Shown here: in pieces, positions 1-62,096 of the stretch
How the letters are laid out: each line of letters starts with the position of its first letter
Numbering within the stretch: position 1 is the stretch's first letter
Origin: Escherichia coli
GTDB taxonomy: Bacteria > Pseudomonadota > Gammaproteobacteria > Enterobacterales > Enterobacteriaceae
Direction: 5' to 3' (one strand)
NCBI RefSeq assembly: GCF_013122565.1
Contig: NZ_CP053258.1
Length of the DNA: 64,000 nucleotides
Notes under the pieces: generated by a model
Told to the model about the DNA's origin: nothing
The model's database searches: none
Seen by the model: the letters and a program-made list of their open reading frames with translations, nothing else
Translations under genes and position numbers: made by a program

Positions 1-177
1 TTGCGTGTTATTGGTCACGCTGAATCCACCCAGACTTCCTAACGTACCACCAGCACCTTCTGTTGGACGTACGGTTGCAGACCCTGCACGCATAAAAAAT
101 TCGCCTGCTTCATGCGCATAGGCACTGCCAGAGAGAAGAGTTGTTACTGCCAAAGCCGCCACTGTTAACTTTTTCAT
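1..177 (-). CDS. ompW: Outer membrane protein W, N-terminal portion (gene runs off the window start)
   Basis: Reverse-strand ATG at 175-177; translation begins MKKLTVAALAV, a signal peptide matching OmpW; synteny next to yciC. Confidence 0.85.
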   Translation of the reverse strand, partial: MKKLTVAALAVTTLLSGSAYAHEAGEFFMRAGSATVRPTEGAGGTLGSLGGFSVTNNTQ

Positions 178-533
178 ATCCGCTCCGTCGTTATGGTTAT
201 AAAAACGTGACGAATATACCTACATTGGAGTAACAAATGATCCTACATAGATCACATTACATATGATAATTCACCCTTTATTGATCTGGATTAATTTAGA
301 AGTTGTATTGAAAATCCTGGTTAATGTGATTTAAATCAATTTTTAAATATTTTCGCTACGCAAATATTAACTCGCTCGCCACTTGCCGCGGTTCGCCCAC
401 GCCTGAAGGCCAGCAATTACCTCCGCTTTACAAAGATATGCTTTTCCATACAAGACCTGATGCTGCCACCCGAGGCTTAACCAGGGTACAATTGCCCGCT
501 AATTAACACCTGCATAAAACTCAAGGAGAGTGC

Positions 534-1277
534 ATGTCTATCACGGCGCAGTCCGTATACCGTGACACCGGAAATTTCTTCCGTAATCAATTTATGACCA
601 TTCTGTTGGTATCGTTGCTATGTGCGTTTATCACAGTGGTGTTAGGGCATGTTTTCTCACCCAGTGATGCACAGCTTGCGCAGCTCAATGACGGCGTGCC
701 CGTTAGCGGCAGTAGTGGGTTGTTCGACCTGGTTCAGAATATGTCACCGGAACAGCAACAAATTTTGCTGCAGGCTTCAGCGGCGTCCACTTTTTCAGGA
801 TTAATCGGTAACGCCATTCTCGCCGGAGGCGTAATATTAATTATCCAGCTGGTGTCTGCGGGTCAGAGAGTCAGTGCGCTGCGAGCTATTGGTGCCAGTG
901 CGCCGATATTGCCAAAGTTATTTATTCTGATTTTTCTGACTACCCTTTTAGTACAGATTGGCATCATGCTGGTGGTCGTTCCGGGAATTATCATGGCCAT
1001 TTTACTGGCTCTGGCACCGGTGATGTTGGTACAGGACAAAATGGGCATTTTTGCCTCGATGCGTAGCAGTATGCGACTGACATGGGCGAATATGCGTCTG
1101 GTGGCGCCCGCAGTACTGAGCTGGTTGCTGGCAAAAACACTGTTGCTGCTTTTTGCCTCTTCTTTTGCCGCATTAACCCCGGAAATTGGTGCCGTACTGG
1201 CGAACACCTTGAGCAACCTGATCTCAGCCGTATTGCTCATCTATCTGTTCCGTCTGTATATGTTGATTCGCCAATAA
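534..1277 (+). CDS. yciC: UPF0259 inner membrane protein YciC
   Basis: 247-aa ORF from track, multi-TM hydrophobic protein, recognised sequence and synteny. Confidence 0.93.
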
Positions 1278-1306
1278 CCTTAAGCATTTGATTACGGAAT
1301 CGTAAA

Positions 1307-1846
1307 ATGAAGCAGTTTCTTGATTTTTTACCGCTGGTTGTCTTTTTCGCGTTTTACAAAATTTATGACATCTATGCGGCTACTGCGGCGCTGATCGTCG
1401 CCACGGCGATTGTGCTTATCTATAGCTGGGTTCGCTTTCGTAAGGTTGAGAAGATGGCCCTGATCACTTTTGTTCTGGTGGTCGTCTTCGGTGGCTTGAC
1501 GCTGTTCTTCCACAATGATGAGTTTATTAAATGGAAGGTTACAGTCATTTATGCTCTGTTTGCGGGAGCCCTGTTAGTCAGCCAATGGGTGATGAAAAAG
1601 CCGCTAATTCAGCGGATGCTGGGTAAAGAACTCACGCTGCCGCAACCGGTATGGTCGAAGCTAAATCTGGCCTGGGCTGTTTTCTTTATCCTTTGCGGTC
1701 TGGCAAACATCTACATCGCATTCTGGCTGCCGCAAAATATTTGGGTCAACTTTAAAGTCTTTGGCCTGACCGCCCTTACCTTAATCTTCACATTGTTAAG
1801 CGGTATCTATATCTACCGCCACATGCCGCAGGAAGATAAATCCTAA
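1307..1846 (+). CDS. yciB: Inner membrane protein YciB (intracellular septation protein A family)
   Basis: 179-aa [24 protein letters not shown], recognised YciB; synteny. Confidence 0.94.
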
Positions 1847-1950
1847 CCAGACTGCCAGTCCTTCGGGGCTGGCGCTGTATCTCCTCTGTTCTCCTCAGGA
1901 AAATCATAGTAGCATCGCGCCTGTGATTTTCCTTTTAAGTCGGTTTTACC

Positions 1951-2349
1951 ATGTCTACAACACATAACGTCCCTCAGGGCGATCTTGTTTTACGTACTTT
2001 AGCCATGCCCGCCGATACCAATGCCAATGGTGACATCTTTGGTGGTTGGTTAATGTCACAAATGGATATTGGCGGCGCTATTCTGGCGAAAGAAATTGCC
2101 CACGGTCGCGTAGTGACTGTGCGGGTTGAAGGAATGACTTTCTTACGGCCGGTTGCGGTCGGCGATGTGGTGTGCTGCTATGCACGCTGTGTCCAGAAAG
2201 GGACGACATCGGTCAGCATTAATATTGAAGTGTGGGTGAAAAAAGTAGCGTCTGAACCAATCGGGCAACGCTATAAAGCGACAGAAGCATTATTTAAGTA
2301 TGTCGCGGTTGATCCTGAAGGAAAACCTCGCGCCTTACCTGTTGAGTAA
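1951..2349 (+). CDS. yciA: Acyl-CoA thioesterase YciA (hotdog fold)
   Basis: 132-aa ORF, recognised YciA sequence; synteny. Confidence 0.93.
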   Translation: MSTTHNVPQGDLVLRTLAMPADTNANGDIFGGWLMSQMDIGGAILAKEIAHGRVVTVRVEGMTFLRPVAVGDVVCCYARCVQKGTTSVSINIEVWVKKVASEPIGQRYKATEALFKYVAVDPEGKPRALPVE

Positions 2350-2354
2350 TAATC

Positions 2355-2378
2355 AAAAGCCTCCGGTCGGAGGCTTTT
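2355..2378. terminator. Bidirectional Rho-independent terminator between convergent yciA and tonB
   Basis: Perfect hairpin aaaagcctccg-gtc-ggaggctttt with A-run on one side and T-run on the other, lying between the two stop codons. Confidence 0.8.
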
Positions 2379-2388
2379 GACTTTCTGC

Positions 2389-3108
2389 TTACTGAATTTC
2401 GGTGGTGCCGTTAATTTTAAACAGGATATTCACCACAATCCCACTGCCTGGCTTACCCGGCTCATAACGCCATCTGCGCATCGCATTTTTCACCTCACGC
2501 TCAAACATGTTCGCAGGCTTGGCTGAGAGGATTTGCACGTTATCCACGCGACCATCCGGCGTGACATCAAATTTAACTTTAACCTGCCCTTCAATGCGCA
2601 ATGCCTGTGCTCGTGCCGGATACTGCGGCTGATTACGGCTTAATGCGCGTGGTCCTGAAGCCACACTGGTAACCGGCTTGCTGGTTGCAGCCGTTGCCGT
2701 ACTTGATGTAGGGCGCGCGGGTGCCGTATTTTCAAACGGTGATGCCGGACGCGACTCTACGGGTTTGACATCGCGTTTTGGCTGCTCCTGTACCTTTTTC
2801 ACCGGCTTCGGTTTTGGCTTAGGTTTCGGCTTCGGCTTTTCAATGACCACCGGTGCTTCTTTTGGCGGTTCAGGAATCGGCTCAGGTTCCGGTTCTGGCT
2901 CTACCACCGGCTCCGGTGGCGGCTGAACGGCTTGTGGCGGTTCGAGATCAGCAGGCGCAACCATCGTAACAGAAATCGGCTGCGCAGGCGCAGGTAGTTC
3001 AATAACCTGATGTACCGAGGTATAGAGCAGACCCGCCACAACAGCACCATGAATGCAGACCGAAAGTAACGTCGGCCAGGGGAAGCGGCGAGGTAAATCA
3101 AGGGTCAT
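2389..3108 (-). CDS. tonB: TonB energy transducer (239 aa; internal start used, track ORF extends to 3159)
   Basis: [18 protein letters not shown]-terminus, (EP)n and (KP)n proline-rich repeats, C-terminal TonB domain. Confidence 0.95.
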
Positions 3109-3331
3109 TGAAGTCATAATCATTTCAGCAGAAAAACCAGGCCTCGATTTTAAATGCAAATAGCAATCATATTCAATAAGGCAAGACGATCAGGATCAGT
3201 GAAAATGTCATTTTTGGCGTAATTGACCTTACTTTATGCATGGTCTTAACAAAGACATCATCTTTCCGTTGCAGATCTTCGCCCTTTCAAATAACGTACT
3301 TTACAACTTTCCCGAACAAGGAGTTGTGCCC

Positions 3332-3628
3332 GTGTTGTATGTTATTTACGCTCAAGACAAAGCTGATAGCCTCGAAAAACGCCTTTCCGTTCGTCCGGCA
3401 CATTTAGCACGTTTACAGTTACTGCATGATGAAGGTCGTTTGTTGACAGCTGGTCCAATGCCAGCGGTAGACAGTAACGATCCAGGGGCTGCGGGATTTA
3501 CTGGCTCAACCGTTATTGCTGAATTTGAATCGCTGGAAGCAGCTCAGGCCTGGGCCGATGCTGACCCGTACGTAGCGGCAGGTGTCTATGAACACGTTTC
3601 AGTGAAACCATTTAAGAAAGTGTTCTGA
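3332..3628 (+). CDS. yciI: YciI-family protein (98 aa, GTG start preceded by AAGGAG)
   Basis: [18 protein letters not shown] sequence recognised as YciI; SD aaggag 9 nt upstream of GTG at 3332. Confidence 0.9.
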
Positions 3629-54359: not shown

Positions 54360-55451
54360 ATGGGATTCAAATGCGGTATCGTCGGTTTGCCCAACGTCGG
54401 GAAATCTACCCTGTTCAACGCGCTGACCAAAGCCGGTATTGAAGCGGCCAACTTTCCATTCTGCACCATTGAGCCAAACACAGGCGTCGTACCAATGCCT
54501 GATCCTCGCCTGGATCAACTGGCTGAAATCGTAAAACCGCAACGTACGCTTCCCACGACCATGGAATTTGTCGATATCGCCGGTCTGGTAAAAGGCGCAT
54601 CGAAAGGCGAAGGTCTGGGTAACCAGTTCCTGACTAACATCCGTGAAACCGAAGCGATCGGTCACGTTGTTCGCTGCTTTGAAAATGACAACATCATTCA
54701 CGTTTCCGGCAAAGTTAACCCAGCGGACGATATTGAAGTTATCAACACCGAACTGGCGCTGGCAGACCTCGACACCTGCGAACGTGCGATTCATCGCGTA
54801 CAGAAGAAAGCCAAAGGTGGCGATAAAGACGCGAAAGCTGAGCTGGCGGTACTGGAAAAATGCCTGCCGCAGCTGGAAAACGCAGGTATGCTGCGCGCGC
54901 TGGATTTAAGCGCTGAAGAGAAAGCGGCTATTCGTTACCTGAGCTTCCTGACGCTGAAACCAACAATGTACATCGCCAACGTTAACGAAGACGGTTTTGA
55001 AAACAACCCGTATCTTGACCAGGTGCGTGAAATCGCGGCGAAAGAAGGTTCTGTTGTGGTTCCGGTTTGTGCTGCTGTTGAAGCAGACATTGCCGAACTG
55101 GACGACGAAGAACGTGACGAGTTTATGCAGGAGCTTGGGCTGGAAGAGCCGGGCCTGAACCGTGTGATCCGTGCCGGTTATAAGCTGCTGAACCTGCAAA
55201 CTTACTTCACCGCTGGAGTGAAAGAAGTGCGTGCATGGACAATTCCGGTTGGTGCAACCGCGCCGCAGGCAGCGGGCAAAATCCATACTGATTTTGAAAA
55301 AGGCTTTATCCGTGCACAAACCATCTCGTTTGAAGATTTCATCACTTACAAAGGTGAACAAGGCGCGAAAGAAGCAGGCAAAATGCGTGCAGAAGGTAAA
55401 GATTACATCGTTAAAGATGGCGATGTGATGAACTTCCTTTTCAACGTCTAA
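54360..55451 (+). CDS. ychF: Ribosome-binding ATPase YchF (Obg-family)
   Basis: 363-aa [26 protein letters not shown] with P-loop and C-terminal TGS domain. Confidence 0.97.
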
Positions 55452-55536: not shown

Positions 55537-56295
55537 TTTCACCGAGTCCTAACCATTCTTGTAACATCCTACACTTTTGTGCTTATTGCCTACAGTGACC
55601 ACGAGAATAATTAAAGACATAAGTGTTCAGATGACGGATATCTCATTAGCAGTGGATATAACGTAAGTTTGTGTTCCACTACACATCAGCCCTCTTCACA
55701 GCTGATCAATATTGATCACGCTCCAATATGCTGGCGAGAAAAGGACTTACCTGAAGGGTAATATCCCGCAGATAAAGTCCCCGAATAACGAGATTACGTG
55801 CGATCCTGGCAAGATGAAAATGATAACCAATAGCACGATAATAACGATATGCCAGAAAATCCATTGATCAAAAATGAATATCGATGTTTTTTGCTTTTTC
55901 TTATTAGTAATGCAAAAATGGCGCATATTGTTTTTGTTATGCAGATACATCAAGCGAAAATCCCATAACTAATTAGGATTATTACCAAAAAATATTCACC
56001 AAATTATTTAACCGCTGTTTGTTGTAATGTTTTTGTCATATTCATAGTAACGAATTGGAATAAGTAACGACAACTTAGGGAATAACTCGATCTAAACTCA
56101 CCTTTGTAAGGGGGATGTTAAATATATATTAATTCCTGTGTTCCTGATTTTGCCCGGTAATAGAGAATTATTCTCAGAGAAGCTCATCATGATTGCACCA
56201 TACAAATATCATGATGATAAGAGGATATTATTCATTGACTTAAACAAAATGACAAAATCCATAGACCCATAGCCTGGGTACTATATAGGAGTGGT

Positions 56296-59181
56296 ATGGG
56301 CATCAAACAACACAATGGGAATACCAAAGCCGATCGTCTCGCTGAATTAAAAATCCGTTCGCCCTCAATTCAACTGATAAAATTTGGCGCTATTGGTTTG
56401 AATGCAATTATCTTTTCCCCCCTGCTGATAGCTGCTGATACAGGAAGTCAATATGGCACCAATATTACTATTAATGATGGTGACAGAATTACAGGAGATA
56501 CCGCCGATCCATCAGGAAACCTCTATGGTGTAATGACCCCAGCAGGAAACACGCCTGGCAATATCAACCTGGGTAATGATGTCACCGTCAATGTCAACGA
56601 CGCCTCTGGATATGCAAAAGGAATCATTATTCAGGGCAAAAACAGCTCCCTGACAGCTAACCGACTCACAGTAGATGTTGTTGGTCAAACCTCTGCCATC
56701 GGCATTAATTTAATTGGTGACTATACCCATGCTGACTTAGGCACAGGCAGCACCATTAAGAGTAACGATGACGGCATCATTATTGGGCATAGCTCAACAC
56801 TAACAGCCACTCAATTCACCATTGAAAACTCGAACGGTATAGGCCTAACCATCAATGACTATGGCACCAGTGTCGATCTTGGAAGCGGAAGTAAAATCAA
56901 GACCGATGGAAGTACAGGTGTTTATATCGGTGGTCTCAACGGCAATAACGCCAATGGTGCTGCGCGTTTTACGGCGACAGACCTGACAATCGATGTTCAG
57001 GGCTACAGCGCCATGGGGATAAACGTACAGAAAAACTCTGTTGTCGATCTCGGAACAAACAGTTCCATTAAAACCAGTGGCGATAATGCACACGGCCTCT
57101 GGAGCTTTGGCCAGGTTAGCGCGAATGCACTCACTGTTGATGTAACTGGAGCCGCGGCCAATGGCATCGAAGTTCGTGGTGGTACAACCACTATCGGTGC
57201 AGATAGCCATATTTCTTCCGCGCAGGGCGGTGGTCTCGTAGCCAGTGGTTCAGACGCGACAATCAATTTTTCTGGCACGGCAGCGCAACGAAACAGCATC
57301 TTTTCCGGCGGTTCTTATGGTGCATCAGCCCAGACGGCAACGGCTGTTATCAACATGCAAAATACCGATATTACGGTTGATCGTAATGGCAGTCTGGCGC
57401 TGGGGTTGTGGGCGCTCAGCGGCGGTAGAATAACCGGAGACAGTTTGGCTATCACCGGCGCGGCAGGAGCCAGGGGGATTTATGCCATGACCAACAGCCA
57501 GATCGATCTCACGAGCGATCTGGTCATTGATATGAGTACACCCGACCAGATGGCCATCGCAACGCAACATGACGATGGTTATGCCGCCAGCCGCATCAAC
57601 GCCTCGGGTCGTATGCTTATCAACGGTAGCGTTCTCTCCAAAGGTGGGCTAATCAATCTGGATATGCACCCTGGGTCGGTTTGGACAGGTTCCTCCCTCA
57701 GCGATAATGTCAATGGCGGGAAACTGGACGTTGCAATGAATAACAGCGTCTGGAACGTAACAAGTAATTCTAATCTCGACACGCTGGCGCTGAGCCATTC
57801 AACTGTCGATTTTGCCAGCCACGGGTCAACTGCCGGCACATTTACCACATTAAACGTAGAGAACCTGAGCGGTAACAGTACCTTTATTATGCGTGCTGAT
57901 GTTGTTGGCGAGGGTAATGGCGTTAATAATAAAGGGGATTTATTGAATATCAGCGGGAGTAGTGCTGGTAATCACGTATTGGCTATCCGCAACCAGGGCA
58001 GCGAGGCCACTACGGGAAATGAAGTTCTGACAGTGGTAAAAACCACTGACGGTGCGGCCTCGTTCAGCGCGTCTTCTCAGGTTGAGTTGGGAGGATATCT
58101 GTACGATGTGCGTAAAAATGGCACTAACTGGGAGCTTTACGCTTCCGGGACAATTCCGGAGCCGACTCCAAATCCTGAACCAACGCCGGCTCCCGCTCAG
58201 CCTCCCATAGTCAACCCCGATCCTACGCCTGAACCCGATCCTACGCCTACCCCCACTCCCACACCTAAACCCACCACGACCGCAGATGCTGGCGGCAATT
58301 ATCTCAATGTCGGTTATTTATTGAACTATGTTGAAAACCGTACGCTGATGCAACGGATGGGTGACCTGCGAAATCAGAGTAAAGACGGTAATATCTGGCT
58401 GCGCAGTTATGGGGGAAGCCTGGACTCCTTCGCCAGTGGCAAACTTAGCGGCTTTGACATGGGTTACAGCGGTATCCAGTTTGGTGGGGATAAACGTCTC
58501 TCTGATGTAATGCCGTTGTATGTCGGTCTGTATATTGGCTCAACACATGCATCGCCGGACTATAGCGGAGGCGACGGTACCGCACGTTCAGACTACATGG
58601 GAATGTACGCCAGTTACATGGCACACAACGGTTTTTACAGCGATCTCGTTGTAAAAGCATCGCGCCAGAAAAATAGCTTCCACGTACTGGACAGTCAGAA
58701 CAACGGCGTTAACGCCAACGGCACTGCGAATGGATTGAGCATCTCCCTGGAAGCCGGGCAGAGGTTCAACCTGACCCCTACTGGTTATGGGTTCTATATA
58801 GAGCCGCAAACCCAGCTCACATACAGCCACCAGAATGAGATGGCTATGAAGGCGAGTAATGGTCTCAATATACATCTGAATCACTACGAATCGCTGCTGG
58901 GGCGTGCCAGTATGATACTGGGATATGACATCACCGCAGGCAACAGCCAGCTGAATATGTATGTGAAGACTGGCGCTATCCGCGAGTTTTCAGGGGATAC
59001 AGAATATCTGTTGAACAACTCCCGGGAGAAGTACAGTTTCAAAGGTAATGGCTGGAATAACGGCGTGGGAGTCAGTGCACAGTATAACAAACAGCACACA
59101 TTCTACCTCGAAGCGGATTACACGCAGGGTAACCTCTTTGATCAGAAGCAAGTCAACGGAGGATATCGCTTCAGCTTTTAA
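56296..59181 (+). CDS. ycgV: Type Va autotransporter adhesin (YcgV-like): passenger beta-helix, Pro/Thr linker, C-terminal beta-barrel
   Basis: 961-aa ORF with repetitive G/T/N/S-rich passenger, PEPTPNPEPTP...TPTPTPTPKP linker, and barrel ending in aromatic-terminal GGYRFSF. Confidence 0.9.
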   Translation: MGIKQHNGNTKADRLAELKIRSPSIQLIKFGAIGLNAIIFSPLLIAADTGSQYGTNITINDGDRITGDTADPSGNLYGVMTPAGNTPGNINLGNDVTVNVNDASGYAKGIIIQGKNSSLTANRLTVDVVGQTSAIGINLIGDYTHADLGTGSTIKSNDDGIIIGHSSTLTATQFTIENSNGIGLTINDYGTSVDLGSGSKIKTDGSTGVYIGGLNGNNANGAARFTATDLTIDVQGYSAMGINVQKNSVVDLGTNSSIKTSGDNAHGLWSFGQVSANALTVDVTGAAANGIEVRGGTTTIGADSHISSAQGGGLVASGSDATINFSGTAAQRNSIFSGGSYGASAQTATAVINMQNTDITVDRNGSLALGLWALSGGRITGDSLAITGAAGARGIYAMTNSQIDLTSDLVIDMSTPDQMAIATQHDDGYAASRINASGRMLINGSVLSKGGLINLDMHPGSVWTGSSLSDNVNGGKLDVAMNNSVWNVTSNSNLDTLALSHSTVDFASHGSTAGTFTTLNVENLSGNSTFIMRADVVGEGNGVNNKGDLLNISGSSAGNHVLAIRNQGSEATTGNEVLTVVKTTDGAASFSASSQVELGGYLYDVRKNGTNWELYASGTIPEPTPNPEPTPAPAQPPIVNPDPTPEPDPTPTPTPTPKPTTTADAGGNYLNVGYLLNYVENRTLMQRMGDLRNQSKDGNIWLRSYGGSLDSFASGKLSGFDMGYSGIQFGGDKRLSDVMPLYVGLYIGSTHASPDYSGGDGTARSDYMGMYASYMAHNGFYSDLVVKASRQKNSFHVLDSQNNGVNANGTANGLSISLEAGQRFNLTPTGYGFYIEPQTQLTYSHQNEMAMKASNGLNIHLNHYESLLGRASMILGYDITAGNSQLNMYVKTGAIREFSGDTEYLLNNSREKYSFKGNGWNNGVGVSAQYNKQHTFYLEADYTQGNLFDQKQVNGGYRFSF

Positions 59182-59394
59182 GTACGGGGTAGACAAGCCC
59201 TTAAACGATGCTGAAAAATGTTAGCGTGCGCCGGAATGAAATATAGATCATCCTGGTGTAATTAAGATCATGCGGAGGTGCGTCAACGCCTCCGCGCCTT
59301 TCACCAAAAAGTCATTGATGGAGGGGCAGGGTGATTACTCAGTCTCATTGGAATAATCTTTGTAAATTAACAAACTTGATCGTAAGGATATCAG

Positions 59395-59688
59395 ATGGCT
59401 ATTACCTATATCGTTGTTTTAACCTATGTAAAACCACTCAGCGAAGTCGATGAGCAAATTCCGGCTCATATCGAATGGTTAAAAAAAGGTTATTCAGATG
59501 GTGTTTTTCTCGCATCTGGAAGAAGAGTACCCCGCAATGGGGGCATCATTCTAGCTCAATGCAATGATATTCATGCTTTAGAACAACGCCTGAGTCAGGA
59601 TCCATTCCGAAAGAGTGGGATCGCGGAGTCAGTAATTATTCCGTTTGAAGCCAGTATGAAATCAGAAGCATTACAGGATATTTTTTAG
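59395..59688 (+). CDS. YciI-family (Dabb-like) small protein, 97 aa
   Basis: ATG at 59395 preceded by aaggatatcag; product ITYIVVLTYVKPLSEVDEQIPAHIEWLKKGY...DPFRKSGIAESVIIPFEA parallels yciI motifs (PAHxxxL, DPY/F, VxPF). Confidence 0.7.
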   Translation: MAITYIVVLTYVKPLSEVDEQIPAHIEWLKKGYSDGVFLASGRRVPRNGGIILAQCNDIHALEQRLSQDPFRKSGIAESVIIPFEASMKSEALQDIF

Positions 59689-59949
59689 TTATCACATGGA
59701 TGAGGTGAACCATCGATTTGGTTCAACTCACCGAAATAATTACACCTATTACGTGGTGGGTAAATGCGAACGTTATCGTGCCACAGAACCGGCCTGTATA
59801 ACTATTTTCAGATAAGCTCCTGCCGATAATTCTGCGGATCATGATATTCTTGACTATCTATCGTCAGTTATCACCCGTGATTTACTGCTTAGATACCGGT
59901 GAGGACTAAAAAACTATTATGTGGCGCACATAATGATTTTTTCTATCTT

Positions 59950-61869
59950 TCATACCCGGCGCTTAAACTGCCCTGCATCAATGCCATGTTGCTTCATTTT
60001 CCGCCACAGCGTAGTGCGGCCGATTCCAAGTAAAGCCGACATTTCCTGAATGCGACCGCCTGTGACCTGGGCTGCGTTAATAATTGCCTCTTTTTCAACT
60101 TCCGCAAATGACAGACTGGTGGAAAGGCGTGTGGCGCTGACATCATCTGTCGCCTGCTCGGTAAACAGATGTTCCGGCAAATCACTGACGCGAATGCGCC
60201 CATTATCACTACTCAGAGCAAGATTCTCGATGACGCTGTAAAGTTCAAAATCGTTGCCTGGCCATGCACAAGAAACCAGGCGAGCGAGGGCATCGTCATC
60301 AATTTTCAGCCGCGTAGAGAAGCGTTTTTCAAGACTGAGTAATTTGTTATTCACCAACGCCGGAATGCTGCCACGCCGCATACGCAGAGGCGGGATGGTA
60401 ATTTCAAATGCATGCAACGCGTAATACAGCTGGCGACTAAAACGATTTTGTTCCACCAGCATTGCGAGGTCCGCGGTCGTTGTGGCAATCACTTTGACAT
60501 CAATTGGTATTAAACGCCGCGCATCCAGTCGCGTGATAACACCCTGCTTGATAACCTGAAGCAAAGCAGACTGTAACTCCACCGCCAGATATTCAATCTT
60601 TTCAAGAAACAGCGTGCCGCCGTGCGCCAGTTCCAGCCGACTCAGACGGCCATTTTCATTGTCCGTGCGATCGCCACCAATAAATTCTTCCACCAGCGCC
60701 GCATCACCATATAACTCACAATTGACGGCGATATAAGGACCTGCAGCACGCTCGCTTTCATTATGAATTGCCTGACTTAGCAGTGCCTTTCCCACGCCCT
60801 CTTCTCCACAAAGCAGGACAGGAAAGCTACTGCGCGCCGCCTGGCGACCAAAATGAATCAAGCGGCGGGTTTGCGGATCGTCCTGTGGCATATGAGCGAA
60901 GGTATGGCTGACTTTTCCTAATTGACTGGTCATTAACTGCCGCATCTGTTCCACAGGATGGAGCAACAAAATAAAGCTGGTTCCCTGCGTTTCTATTATC
61001 GGTTTAAGGGTTATCACCGCATCAATAAACTGGTGCTGGCTTTCAAAGGTTGCTTCTACGTGTTTGAGCGGATGTGCCTGTTTTATTGCTTGTTGCAATA
61101 CGGCGGGTAACGTTAAGAGTTCAGTGATTGCCCTTCCCTGACTTGCCGTCGCGTCAAGGCGCAAGACCCGCGCCGCCTGGGCATTGATAAATTGCAAATT
61201 ACCCTGCTCGTCCCAGCTAATCACGCCATCATCCATACTTTCTAACAGGGCATTAAGTTGATTTAAATGACGGTTAGTTTCAGCGAGCAAACTGTCCGTC
61301 AGCAGTAAATTTCCGACCTCGCGGGCGATTGCCAACGTCAACGGCAAATCAGCTGCGGTAGTTTGCTCAACCGGACACGCCAGCGCTATTGTTCCCGTCA
61401 ATCGGCCCTTGCTGTCAAACAACGGCGTTGCACAAAAGGCCCAGTTCCAGAGTGCCTGTTTGAAATGTTGATCGGCCATCGTTTTCACGGCCTGACCAGA
61501 GATAGCCGCTAACGATAGCGCACAAGTACCAATAATTCCCTCGGCGCAATACGTGCCGTCATTGAATCCCAGTGCACTTAGCTGCTGCAAGGTTTGCGGA
61601 TCGCCATTACGGCTGAGAATGCAGGCGGTTTCATCGAGAATAAACAGCGCACACTCTCGCGGTGCCATATATTCCCAGGCATCTTCCAGCGCAGCCTGCC
61701 CGAGCGTCAGCATCGCTTTCTTACGCCGATAAATAGAAGCAAATGTCACGCCCTGGGCCTGATGTGGTACGTTCCATGTCTCCCGTTTCATCAGTTTATT
61801 GCATCGCTCCCAGGAGGTTGCAATTAAGGGTGATATGCCCCGACCATCGTTGTTAAAAGCGCCACTCAT
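59950..61869 (-). CDS. dhaR: Dihydroxyacetone kinase operon activator DhaR (639 aa; alternative ATG 3 codons upstream at 61878)
   Basis: GAF/PAS N-terminus, AAA+ central domain (GEEGVGK), C-terminal HTH; recognised sequence. Confidence 0.93.
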   Translation of the reverse strand: MSGAFNNDGRGISPLIATSWERCNKLMKRETWNVPHQAQGVTFASIYRRKKAMLTLGQAALEDAWEYMAPRECALFILDETACILSRNGDPQTLQQLSALGFNDGTYCAEGIIGTCALSLAAISGQAVKTMADQHFKQALWNWAFCATPLFDSKGRLTGTIALACPVEQTTAADLPLTLAIAREVGNLLLTDSLLAETNRHLNQLNALLESMDDGVISWDEQGNLQFINAQAARVLRLDATASQGRAITELLTLPAVLQQAIKQAHPLKHVEATFESQHQFIDAVITLKPIIETQGTSFILLLHPVEQMRQLMTSQLGKVSHTFAHMPQDDPQTRRLIHFGRQAARSSFPVLLCGEEGVGKALLSQAIHNESERAAGPYIAVNCELYGDAALVEEFIGGDRTDNENGRLSRLELAHGGTLFLEKIEYLAVELQSALLQVIKQGVITRLDARRLIPIDVKVIATTTADLAMLVEQNRFSRQLYYALHAFEITIPPLRMRRGSIPALVNNKLLSLEKRFSTRLKIDDDALARLVSCAWPGNDFELYSVIENLALSSDNGRIRVSDLPEHLFTEQATDDVSATRLSTSLSFAEVEKEAIINAAQVTGGRIQEMSALLGIGRTTLWRKMKQHGIDAGQFKRRV

Positions 61870-62096
61870 ATCCCGCATCCCTTATGACAAAAGGTGTTCC
61901 GGCTCGCAATTTTAAGTATTAATACACGTATAAGTTTCAATATGGAACATTCATTAAAGCATATGTTTCACTATGAAACATAATTTGGGCTAATTTTCTT
62001 TTCCCTTGCCTGATGCACAATGGATTCATCGGCAGTCAGTGGTCGCCGTGTCGTTGAACATCATCCATGCCCTACCGTAATTGCTGGAGCAAAATA

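Follow-up and report, generated by a model that had tools for sequence, protein, structure and literature searches.

YcgV of Escherichia coli K-12 is an AIDA-I-type autotransporter adhesin associated with biofilm formation. TibA, an autotransporter of the same phylogenetic group (PMC9289746), carries a proline-rich domain (residues 627–677) between its junction region and its membrane domain (PMC3835316), and pertactin contains proline-rich repeats, R1 and R2, whose copy number differs between alleles and of which R2 is unresolved in the crystal (PMC8931430). Here we describe a comparable tract, rich in proline and threonine, in the ycgV gene of a 64,000-nucleotide (nt) stretch of E. coli DNA (contig NZ_CP053258.1; hereafter the window). 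The tract links passenger and barrel in a protein of 961 amino acids (aa), against 955 aa in K-12, and this difference is a single 18-nt repeat unit within the tract. Very probably, the tract is a spacer that varies by slow, in-frame gain and loss of such units, a near-neutral drift in length.

The closest analogues of the YcgV tract are the proline-rich domain of TibA and the R1/R2 repeats of pertactin. The TibA domain is of similar size and occupies the same position before the membrane-embedded domain, but its sequence is different. The repeats of Bordetella pertactin are tandem proline-rich peptide units (GGXXP in R1, PQP in R2) with allele-dependent copy number, and the YcgV tract is a polymorphic repeat of this kind, occurring with two, three or four units of the PDPTPE, PDPTP(T/N) and PTPTPK type; the C-terminal passenger of YcgV also matches the Pertactin Pfam domain and the pertactin structure 1dab. 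However, the pertactin repeats are described as large, variable loops of the beta-helix rather than a linker to the barrel helix, and their units are shorter and more regular, with 13 reported alleles (PMC8931430), whereas YcgV has degenerate 18-nt units in three lengths.

The Pro/Thr-rich linker of YcgV

The open reading frame (ORF) at 56296..59181 on the plus strand is E. coli ycgV and encodes 961 aa plus a stop, the length stated in the initial annotation, which had also flagged a low-complexity Pro/Thr-rich linker between passenger and barrel at 58150–58285. Translation of 58150–58287 gives TIPEPTPNPEPTPAPAQPPIVNPDPTPEPDPTPTPTPTPKPTTTAD, and the linker is indeed there, as the 39-aa segment PEPTPNPEPTPAPAQPPIVNPDPTPEPDPTPTPTPTPKP (aa 621–659; 58156..58272, plus strand). 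Nineteen of its residues are proline and seven threonine; in the rest of YcgV proline accounts for only 1.2% (binomial P about 1.5e-26), and GC content is 63% in the tract compared with 50% in the gene. The tract is placed between the Pertactin domain, which ends at aa 615, and a helix (aa 661–693) with the Autotransporter beta-domain beyond it, from aa 700.

An AlphaFold model of aa 480–961, made from an alignment of 29 homologues (mean predicted local distance difference test (pLDDT) 85.6; model residue + 479 = protein residue), has confident beta structure until about aa 616 and coil at aa 617–658, with pLDDT below 50 at aa 622–637 and 639–653. Given the modelled beta structure before the tract, the helix and barrel after it, and the structural matches described below, the tract is predicted to be an unstructured connector from the folded passenger to the pore helix and barrel. 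A match of the tract to the trypanosome procyclin family (PF05887, Trypan_PARP) scored 23.2 bits against a Pfam cut-off of 100 and was rejected as purely compositional, reflecting EP/DP repeats. The opposite strand of the tract contains no ORF of 40 aa or more.

In K-12 MG1655, ycgV is 2868 nt long and encodes 955 aa (P76017 / AAC74286), a length likewise given in PMC13101318. It is the same gene, with the same locus (ychF–ycgV–dhaR) and domain order; megablast aligned the two at 100% coverage and 97.6% DNA identity, and the proteins are 98% identical. The window allele differs from that of K-12 by one more 18-nt linker unit (PDPTPT) and by scattered substitutions. Pairwise alignment bore out the earlier suggestion that the difference in length arises in the tract: the only indel, in protein and DNA alike, comprises 6 aa (18 nt) and lies at aa 647–652. 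The 18 nt present in the window and absent from K-12 ycgV lie at 58238..58255 (plus strand) as aligned, with equivalent placements within 58234–58256, and the K-12 array consists of two units, CCCGATCCTACGCCTGAA followed by CCCGCTCCCACGCCTAAA. That the two lengths are unrelated to the tract, and reflect another start codon, an indel elsewhere or annotation, is practically out of the question: both proteins share the MGIKQHNG start and the GGYRFSF end, the only gap block occupies columns 647–652, and the DNA alignment contains the same single 18-nt gap.

The tract had also been described as a short-period nucleotide repeat. A repeat is present, but in the form of imperfect 18-nt units and not as a short-period microsatellite. 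Tandem Repeats Finder, run over 56000–59400 with a minimum score of 30, reported no array in the tract, and the microsatellite reading was dropped on that account. Proline is encoded by a mixture of codons (CCT 7, CCC 7, CCG 3, CCA 2), and no exact self-match at period 6 is longer than 5 nt. Self-identity reaches 0.53 at a lag of 6 nt and 0.56 at a lag of 18 nt, compared with about 0.3 for other lags; the 6-nt P-X periodicity of the tract is degenerate. The actual DNA repeat comprises three imperfect units of six codons each at 58216–58269, in the 3′ half of the tract. Unit 1 (U1; CCCGATCCTACGCCTGAA, PDPTPE; 58216..58233, plus strand), the reference at 100%, recurs as an exact duplicate in a 4-unit allele of O169:H41 strains, and identity to it is 83% for unit 2 (U2; CCCGATCCTACGCCTACC, PDPTPT; 58234..58251, plus strand) and 72% for unit 3 (U3; CCCACTCCCACACCTAAA, PTPTPK; 58252..58269, plus strand). 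U1 and U2 have in common a 15-nt exact repeat with a period of 18, the sole long exact repeat. U2 ends in AAC (Asn) in most 3-unit alleles and in ACC (Thr) in the window.

Tract alleles across E. coli

We surveyed 5,426 complete E. coli genomes, of which 4,118 matched annotated ycgV by megablast and about 1,300 had no ycgV match at all. The conserved sequences ATAGTCAAC and CCCACCACGACCGCAGATGC lie on either side of the tract. A 231-nt probe (58100–58330) matched 3,942 records: 1,270 at 95–99% identity, 39 at 90–95% and 2,633 at 80–90%. Among 60 evenly spaced rows sampled from these matches, the span was 231 nt in 19 and 213 nt in 40, and in the remaining one the gene was truncated. The length survey across strains revealed tract alleles of two, three and four 18-nt units, giving proteins of 955, 961 and 967 aa; their frequencies among the approximately 3,940 tract-carrying genomes were roughly 68%, 32% and 0.15%, respectively.

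The 2-unit alleles (the 213-nt class) were not uniform, with at least three junction types among the fetched examples. Junction-specific probes provided exact counts. The K-12-type, in which CCTGAA is followed by CCCGCTCCCACGCCTAAA (K-12 and O104:H4), was found in 2,220 genomes; the 042-type, in which CCTAAC is followed by CCCACTCCCACACCTAAA (042, and TB06051 with one extra single-nucleotide polymorphism (SNP)), in 215; and the E200086-type, in which CCTGCC is followed by CCCGCTCCCACGCCTAAA (E200086), in 36. Each junction type is thus common to many genomes, from tens to thousands. A coverage criterion meant to set the 042-type apart from other alleles failed because BLAST extended through mismatches, and identity bands and ranked rows took its place.

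A probe for the U1–U1 junction matched perfectly in six enterotoxigenic E. coli genomes, a small lineage comprising the O169:H41 strains F6326-C1 and 2014EL-1345-2 plus 88-3493, F9792, F8111-1SC3 and L7_E1373. The 4-unit ycgV is 2,904 nt long and encodes 967 aa, and all three of the fetched genomes encode one protein, WP_001612852.1. Its array, U1–U1–U2(ACC)–U3, is the window array with an exact 18-nt duplication of U1, and reads unambiguously as a recent expansion. A probe for a U2(AAC)–U2 duplication had no match in the 5,426 genomes. Three strains have a ycgV of 2867 or 2869 nt. Slippage in a C run of the tract was considered as the cause and rejected, because the frameshifts fall outside the tract, at gene positions 121, 552 and 2698; that at position 121 is a C6-to-C7 change, in a run that lies at 56417–56422 in the window.

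The allele series explains why YcgV of 955, 961 or 967 aa is found in E. coli databases: these are intact alleles, not errors or pseudogenes. The exact window protein is already on record (WP_171459467.1, Escherichia coli) and falls into a 90%-identity cluster together with YCGV_ECOLI. The flagged tract is therefore confirmed but ordinary, with a known gene, a known kind of linker and an allele already in databases; what is new here, a small addition, is the 2/3/4-unit series and its junction types. It illustrates, cleanly and on a small scale, how a degenerate 18-nt coding repeat changes copy number in frame, and has little importance beyond correct annotation.

Origin of the length differences

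Several independent events, occurring at a low rate, have changed the length of the tract: three lengths and a handful of events, all in frame, were seen across the surveyed genomes. The initial annotation had named slippage as a plausible source of the K-12 difference; length does change in the tract, but the slipping unit is 18 nt rather than short-period, and the tract is not hypervariable. Removing U1 from the common 3-unit array (U2 ending in AAC), with no further change, yields the 042-type array, as would be expected if the 15-nt exact repeat common to U1 and U2 had misaligned. The K-12-type array keeps the GAA of U1 and continues as a U2/U3 hybrid. After the common 15-mer, the K-12-type and 042-type differ at 4 of 18 nt, whereas 0.39 differences are expected from gene-wide divergence (Poisson P=7e-4). 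Because of this excess, the two arrays are best explained as independent contractions that retained different units of a 3-unit ancestor.

042 and TB06051 have the same junction in different flanking haplotypes, suggesting either a recurrent event or allele transfer. Movement of ycgV alleles between backgrounds by homologous recombination does occur, as shown by the mosaic ycgV of LH09-a (locus L006). Its 5′ 1,860 nt differ from O104:H4 by 1 SNP, and its 3′ roughly 900 nt are identical to O111:H8 and 20 SNPs from O104:H4; this mosaic places a recombination breakpoint at or near the linker.

Both flanks of the tract were recognizable in 38 retrieved homologues, down to 26% identity, the conserved sequences being ELGGYLYDVRKNGTNWELY towards the passenger and TTTADAGGNYLNVGYLLNY..MGDLR towards the helix. 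Between these flanks, the length from WELY to MGDLR varies between 42 aa (without proline) and 96 aa, and the number of prolines between 0 and 20; some homologues have lineage-specific peptide repeats here (EKPTPPD four times, ANEPAATP three times, or runs of PDPTPT/S). Two autotransporters of Leminorella grimontii have Pro-rich WELY–MGDLR segments of 81 aa and 58 aa. This pattern has the signature of a spacer that is constrained in composition and not in sequence or length. The two L. grimontii copies are in one genome (L012, 5083–5118, minus strand; L013, 8919–8954, plus strand), and their flanks, YLYDVRKNG..WELY and ADAGGNYLNVGYLLNY, are near-identical to those of YcgV.

We propose that the Pro-rich spacer joins the pertactin-like junction domain, the last folded part of the passenger, to the helix inside the C-terminal barrel. 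Neither helix nor sheet can form from an alternating P-X sequence, and the tract is therefore most likely extended. It would pass through the barrel pore early in secretion and would then serve as a short stalk that keeps passenger and outer membrane apart; with about 3 Å per residue, 39 aa would reach roughly 10–12 nm, and the 6 residues of one unit about 2 nm. The (EP)n(KP)n region of TonB and the hinge of OmpA are Pro-rich spacers thought to act as extended connectors, and they have the alternating P-X composition of the YcgV tract, although they belong to other proteins and compartments and the resemblance is compositional only. Misalignment of units during replication or recombination would add or remove whole 18-nt units, always in frame, with degenerate units and mixed codons keeping the rate of such events low. 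The resulting length variation would most likely be near-neutral drift in a spacer under loose constraint. A YcgV anchor lacking residues 1–621, of which 334 aa (linker, helix and barrel) are left, displayed cargo on the surface once an exogenous signal peptide had been supplied (PMC13101318); the boundary of the linker coincides with the cut used in such YcgV-based surface-display anchors.

Being repeat-containing and of low complexity, differing in length between strains and belonging to a surface adhesin whose gene has been flagged by positive-selection scans (PMC9110714), the tract might alternatively be a contingency locus for phase or antigenic variation, a hypermutable simple-sequence repeat that switches YcgV or changes its epitopes. 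We consider this very remote. Tandem Repeats Finder detected no perfect short (1–9 nt) tandem repeat in the tract, where no period-6 run is exact beyond 5 nt; the three lengths in about 3,940 genomes are all multiples of 18 nt; one identical junction is found in 2,220 genomes and one protein in the three fetched 4-unit genomes; all K-12 laboratory derivatives have kept the same allele; and the frameshifts that inactivate ycgV were found outside the tract. Distinctly unlikely, if less so, is that the tract is a specific functional module, such as a ligand or adhesion motif or an O-glycosylation cluster, whose length alleles are selected, for example to match O-antigen or capsule thickness. Thr-rich P-X tracts are glycosylatable in principle. 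The positive-selection scans (PMC9110714) would also suit a module of this kind. However, in homologues with conserved flanks the tract measures anything from 0 to about 55 residues and its sequence is unrelated or absent, as is typical of a spacer constrained in composition and not of a binding site; the sequence pattern differs even among close homologues, and the AlphaFold model has no defined structure in the tract. It is a long shot that linker length is a tunable trait, in which two, three or four units set the reach of the passenger past lipopolysaccharide or capsule and are co-selected with the type of surface polysaccharide, while comparison of non-orthologous units adds to the 'positive selection' signal of ycgV. 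Amino-acid differences between alleles do cluster at unit ends, at 58231–58256 (E/N/A/T, then A/T), because different repeat units have been retained; codon-based scans that align these units as orthologous may therefore overstate positive selection on ycgV, and part of the reported signal (PMC9110714) may be an alignment artefact of the tract.

The polarity of change could also be the reverse of that proposed above, with a 2-unit, K-12-like array as the ancestor and the 3-unit array arising by duplication and later divergence. Expansion does happen, as in the 4-unit allele; 042 and E200086, the most divergent ycgV sequences sampled, are both 2-unit; and the Citrobacter tract is even shorter and ends in PVPAPKP, resembling the PAPTPKP of K-12. 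However, duplication to the 3-unit array would need 4 extra substitutions in 18 nt from the K-12-type or 2 from the 042-type, whereas contraction from three units needs 1 for the K-12-type and 0 for the 042-type. In addition, the short K-12 and 042 alleles differ 10-fold more here than gene-wide (P=7e-4), an excess that is explained if different units of a longer ancestor were retained. On these counts the reverse order appears less parsimonious than contraction from three units, and we give it a minor, though not trivial, chance.

Several points weigh against slow, near-neutral gain and loss of units in a spacer, or narrow what it claims. Direction can be read from the sequences for the 4-unit allele, clearly an expansion, and for the 042-type, which clearly fits the loss of one unit, but for the K-12-type and E200086-type the ancestral state is deduced from parsimony only. 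A scan for outgroups with a degenerate pattern for GNYLNVGYLLNY, covering one genome per species, matched no Escherichia relative, its only matches being the two L. grimontii autotransporters, and in the nearest outgroup protein, from Citrobacter farmeri (84% identity), the tract is shorter still. The sequence does not distinguish replication slippage from unequal recombination. The sampled rows and the specific probes could have missed alleles with other junctions if these are rarer than roughly 1–2%. We infer both the spacer role and the neutrality of length, and positive selection on ycgV has been reported (PMC9110714), so that neutrality in the strict sense is not established.

Gene architecture and neighbouring variation

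YcgV belongs to the classical type Va (AIDA-I/pertactin-like) autotransporters, with a barrel, a pre-barrel helix and a passenger. The ycgV coding sequence (56296..59181, plus strand) was assigned from the ORF, its Pfam domains, identity to K-12 and its neighbours. It has ychF (54360..55451) upstream and dhaR (59950..61878, minus strand) downstream, and the order ychF–ycgV–dhaR is the same in the window and in the loci for which both flanks were read. The Pertactin-like C-terminal passenger (junction/autochaperone) domain, at aa 494–615 (57775..58140, plus strand; PF03212, E=1.9e-37), is modelled as beta strands with high pLDDT, and P.69 pertactin (1dab) was among the Foldseek matches, with 139 aligned columns, a root-mean-square deviation of 2.0 and 29% identity. 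The Autotransporter beta-barrel domain, at aa 700–941 by Pfam (58393..59118, plus strand; PF03797, E=2.4e-37), scored 129.5 bits against a cut-off of 26, and the modelled barrel strands extend from about aa 699 to aa 960. The best Foldseek matches were BrkA (3qq2; template modelling score 0.89 on target), EspP (3slt, pre-cleavage), Hbp (3aeh), NalP (1uyn) and AIDA-I (4mee), with E values of 1e-11 to 1e-20 for the beta-domain. The predicted alpha-helix at aa 661–693, TTADAGGNYLNVGYLLNYVENRTLMQRMGDLRN (58276..58374, plus strand; H182–188 and H190–214 of the model), stands directly before the first barrel strand, pre-cleavage EspP structures align with the model, and the motifs flanking the helix are conserved across homologues. 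By analogy with solved autotransporter beta-domains, it is taken to be the barrel-plugging pore helix.

At the other end of the protein, SignalP 6.0 predicted no reliable YcgV signal peptide, and an exogenous one was required for display (PMC13101318). The N-terminus encoded in the window (56296–56450) is identical to that of K-12, and Tandem Repeats Finder reported a 10-nt motif, CTGCTGATAG, in 1.9 copies at 56422–56440.

The window differs from other strains on both sides of ycgV. Between the stop codons of ycgV and dhaR lies an insert of about 680 nt (59260–59940), so that the gap between these genes is 768 nt (GC 41%) in the window and 99 nt in the other eleven E. coli loci read. An ORF in the insert (59395..59688, plus strand) encodes a 97-aa YCII-domain protein (PF03795, E=1.2e-13). 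The insert had no match by megablast or blastn in the 5,426 complete E. coli genomes; the exact YCII-domain protein turned up once, on a read contig (Logan SRR11451224) and at the same locus. GCA_052983875.1 encodes a YcgV protein identical to that of the window, yet lacks the insert. In the ychF–ycgV intergenic region, the window has a 75-nt insertion relative to K-12, at about 55737–55811 and beside a short CTGGC motif that is repeated; two assemblies that encode an identical YcgV (L014 and L015) have the insertion too, and K-12, PE164 and O169:H41 lack it.

In other strains ycgV is often inactivated (loci L003, L004 and L017–L019). It is truncated by IS600 in 2018-05-2CC and has an internal stop at aa 424 in WCHEC035148, and in an O157:H7 strain the match is restricted to the first 57% of the gene. 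In PE164, ycgV is intact and an IS3 element lies just upstream.

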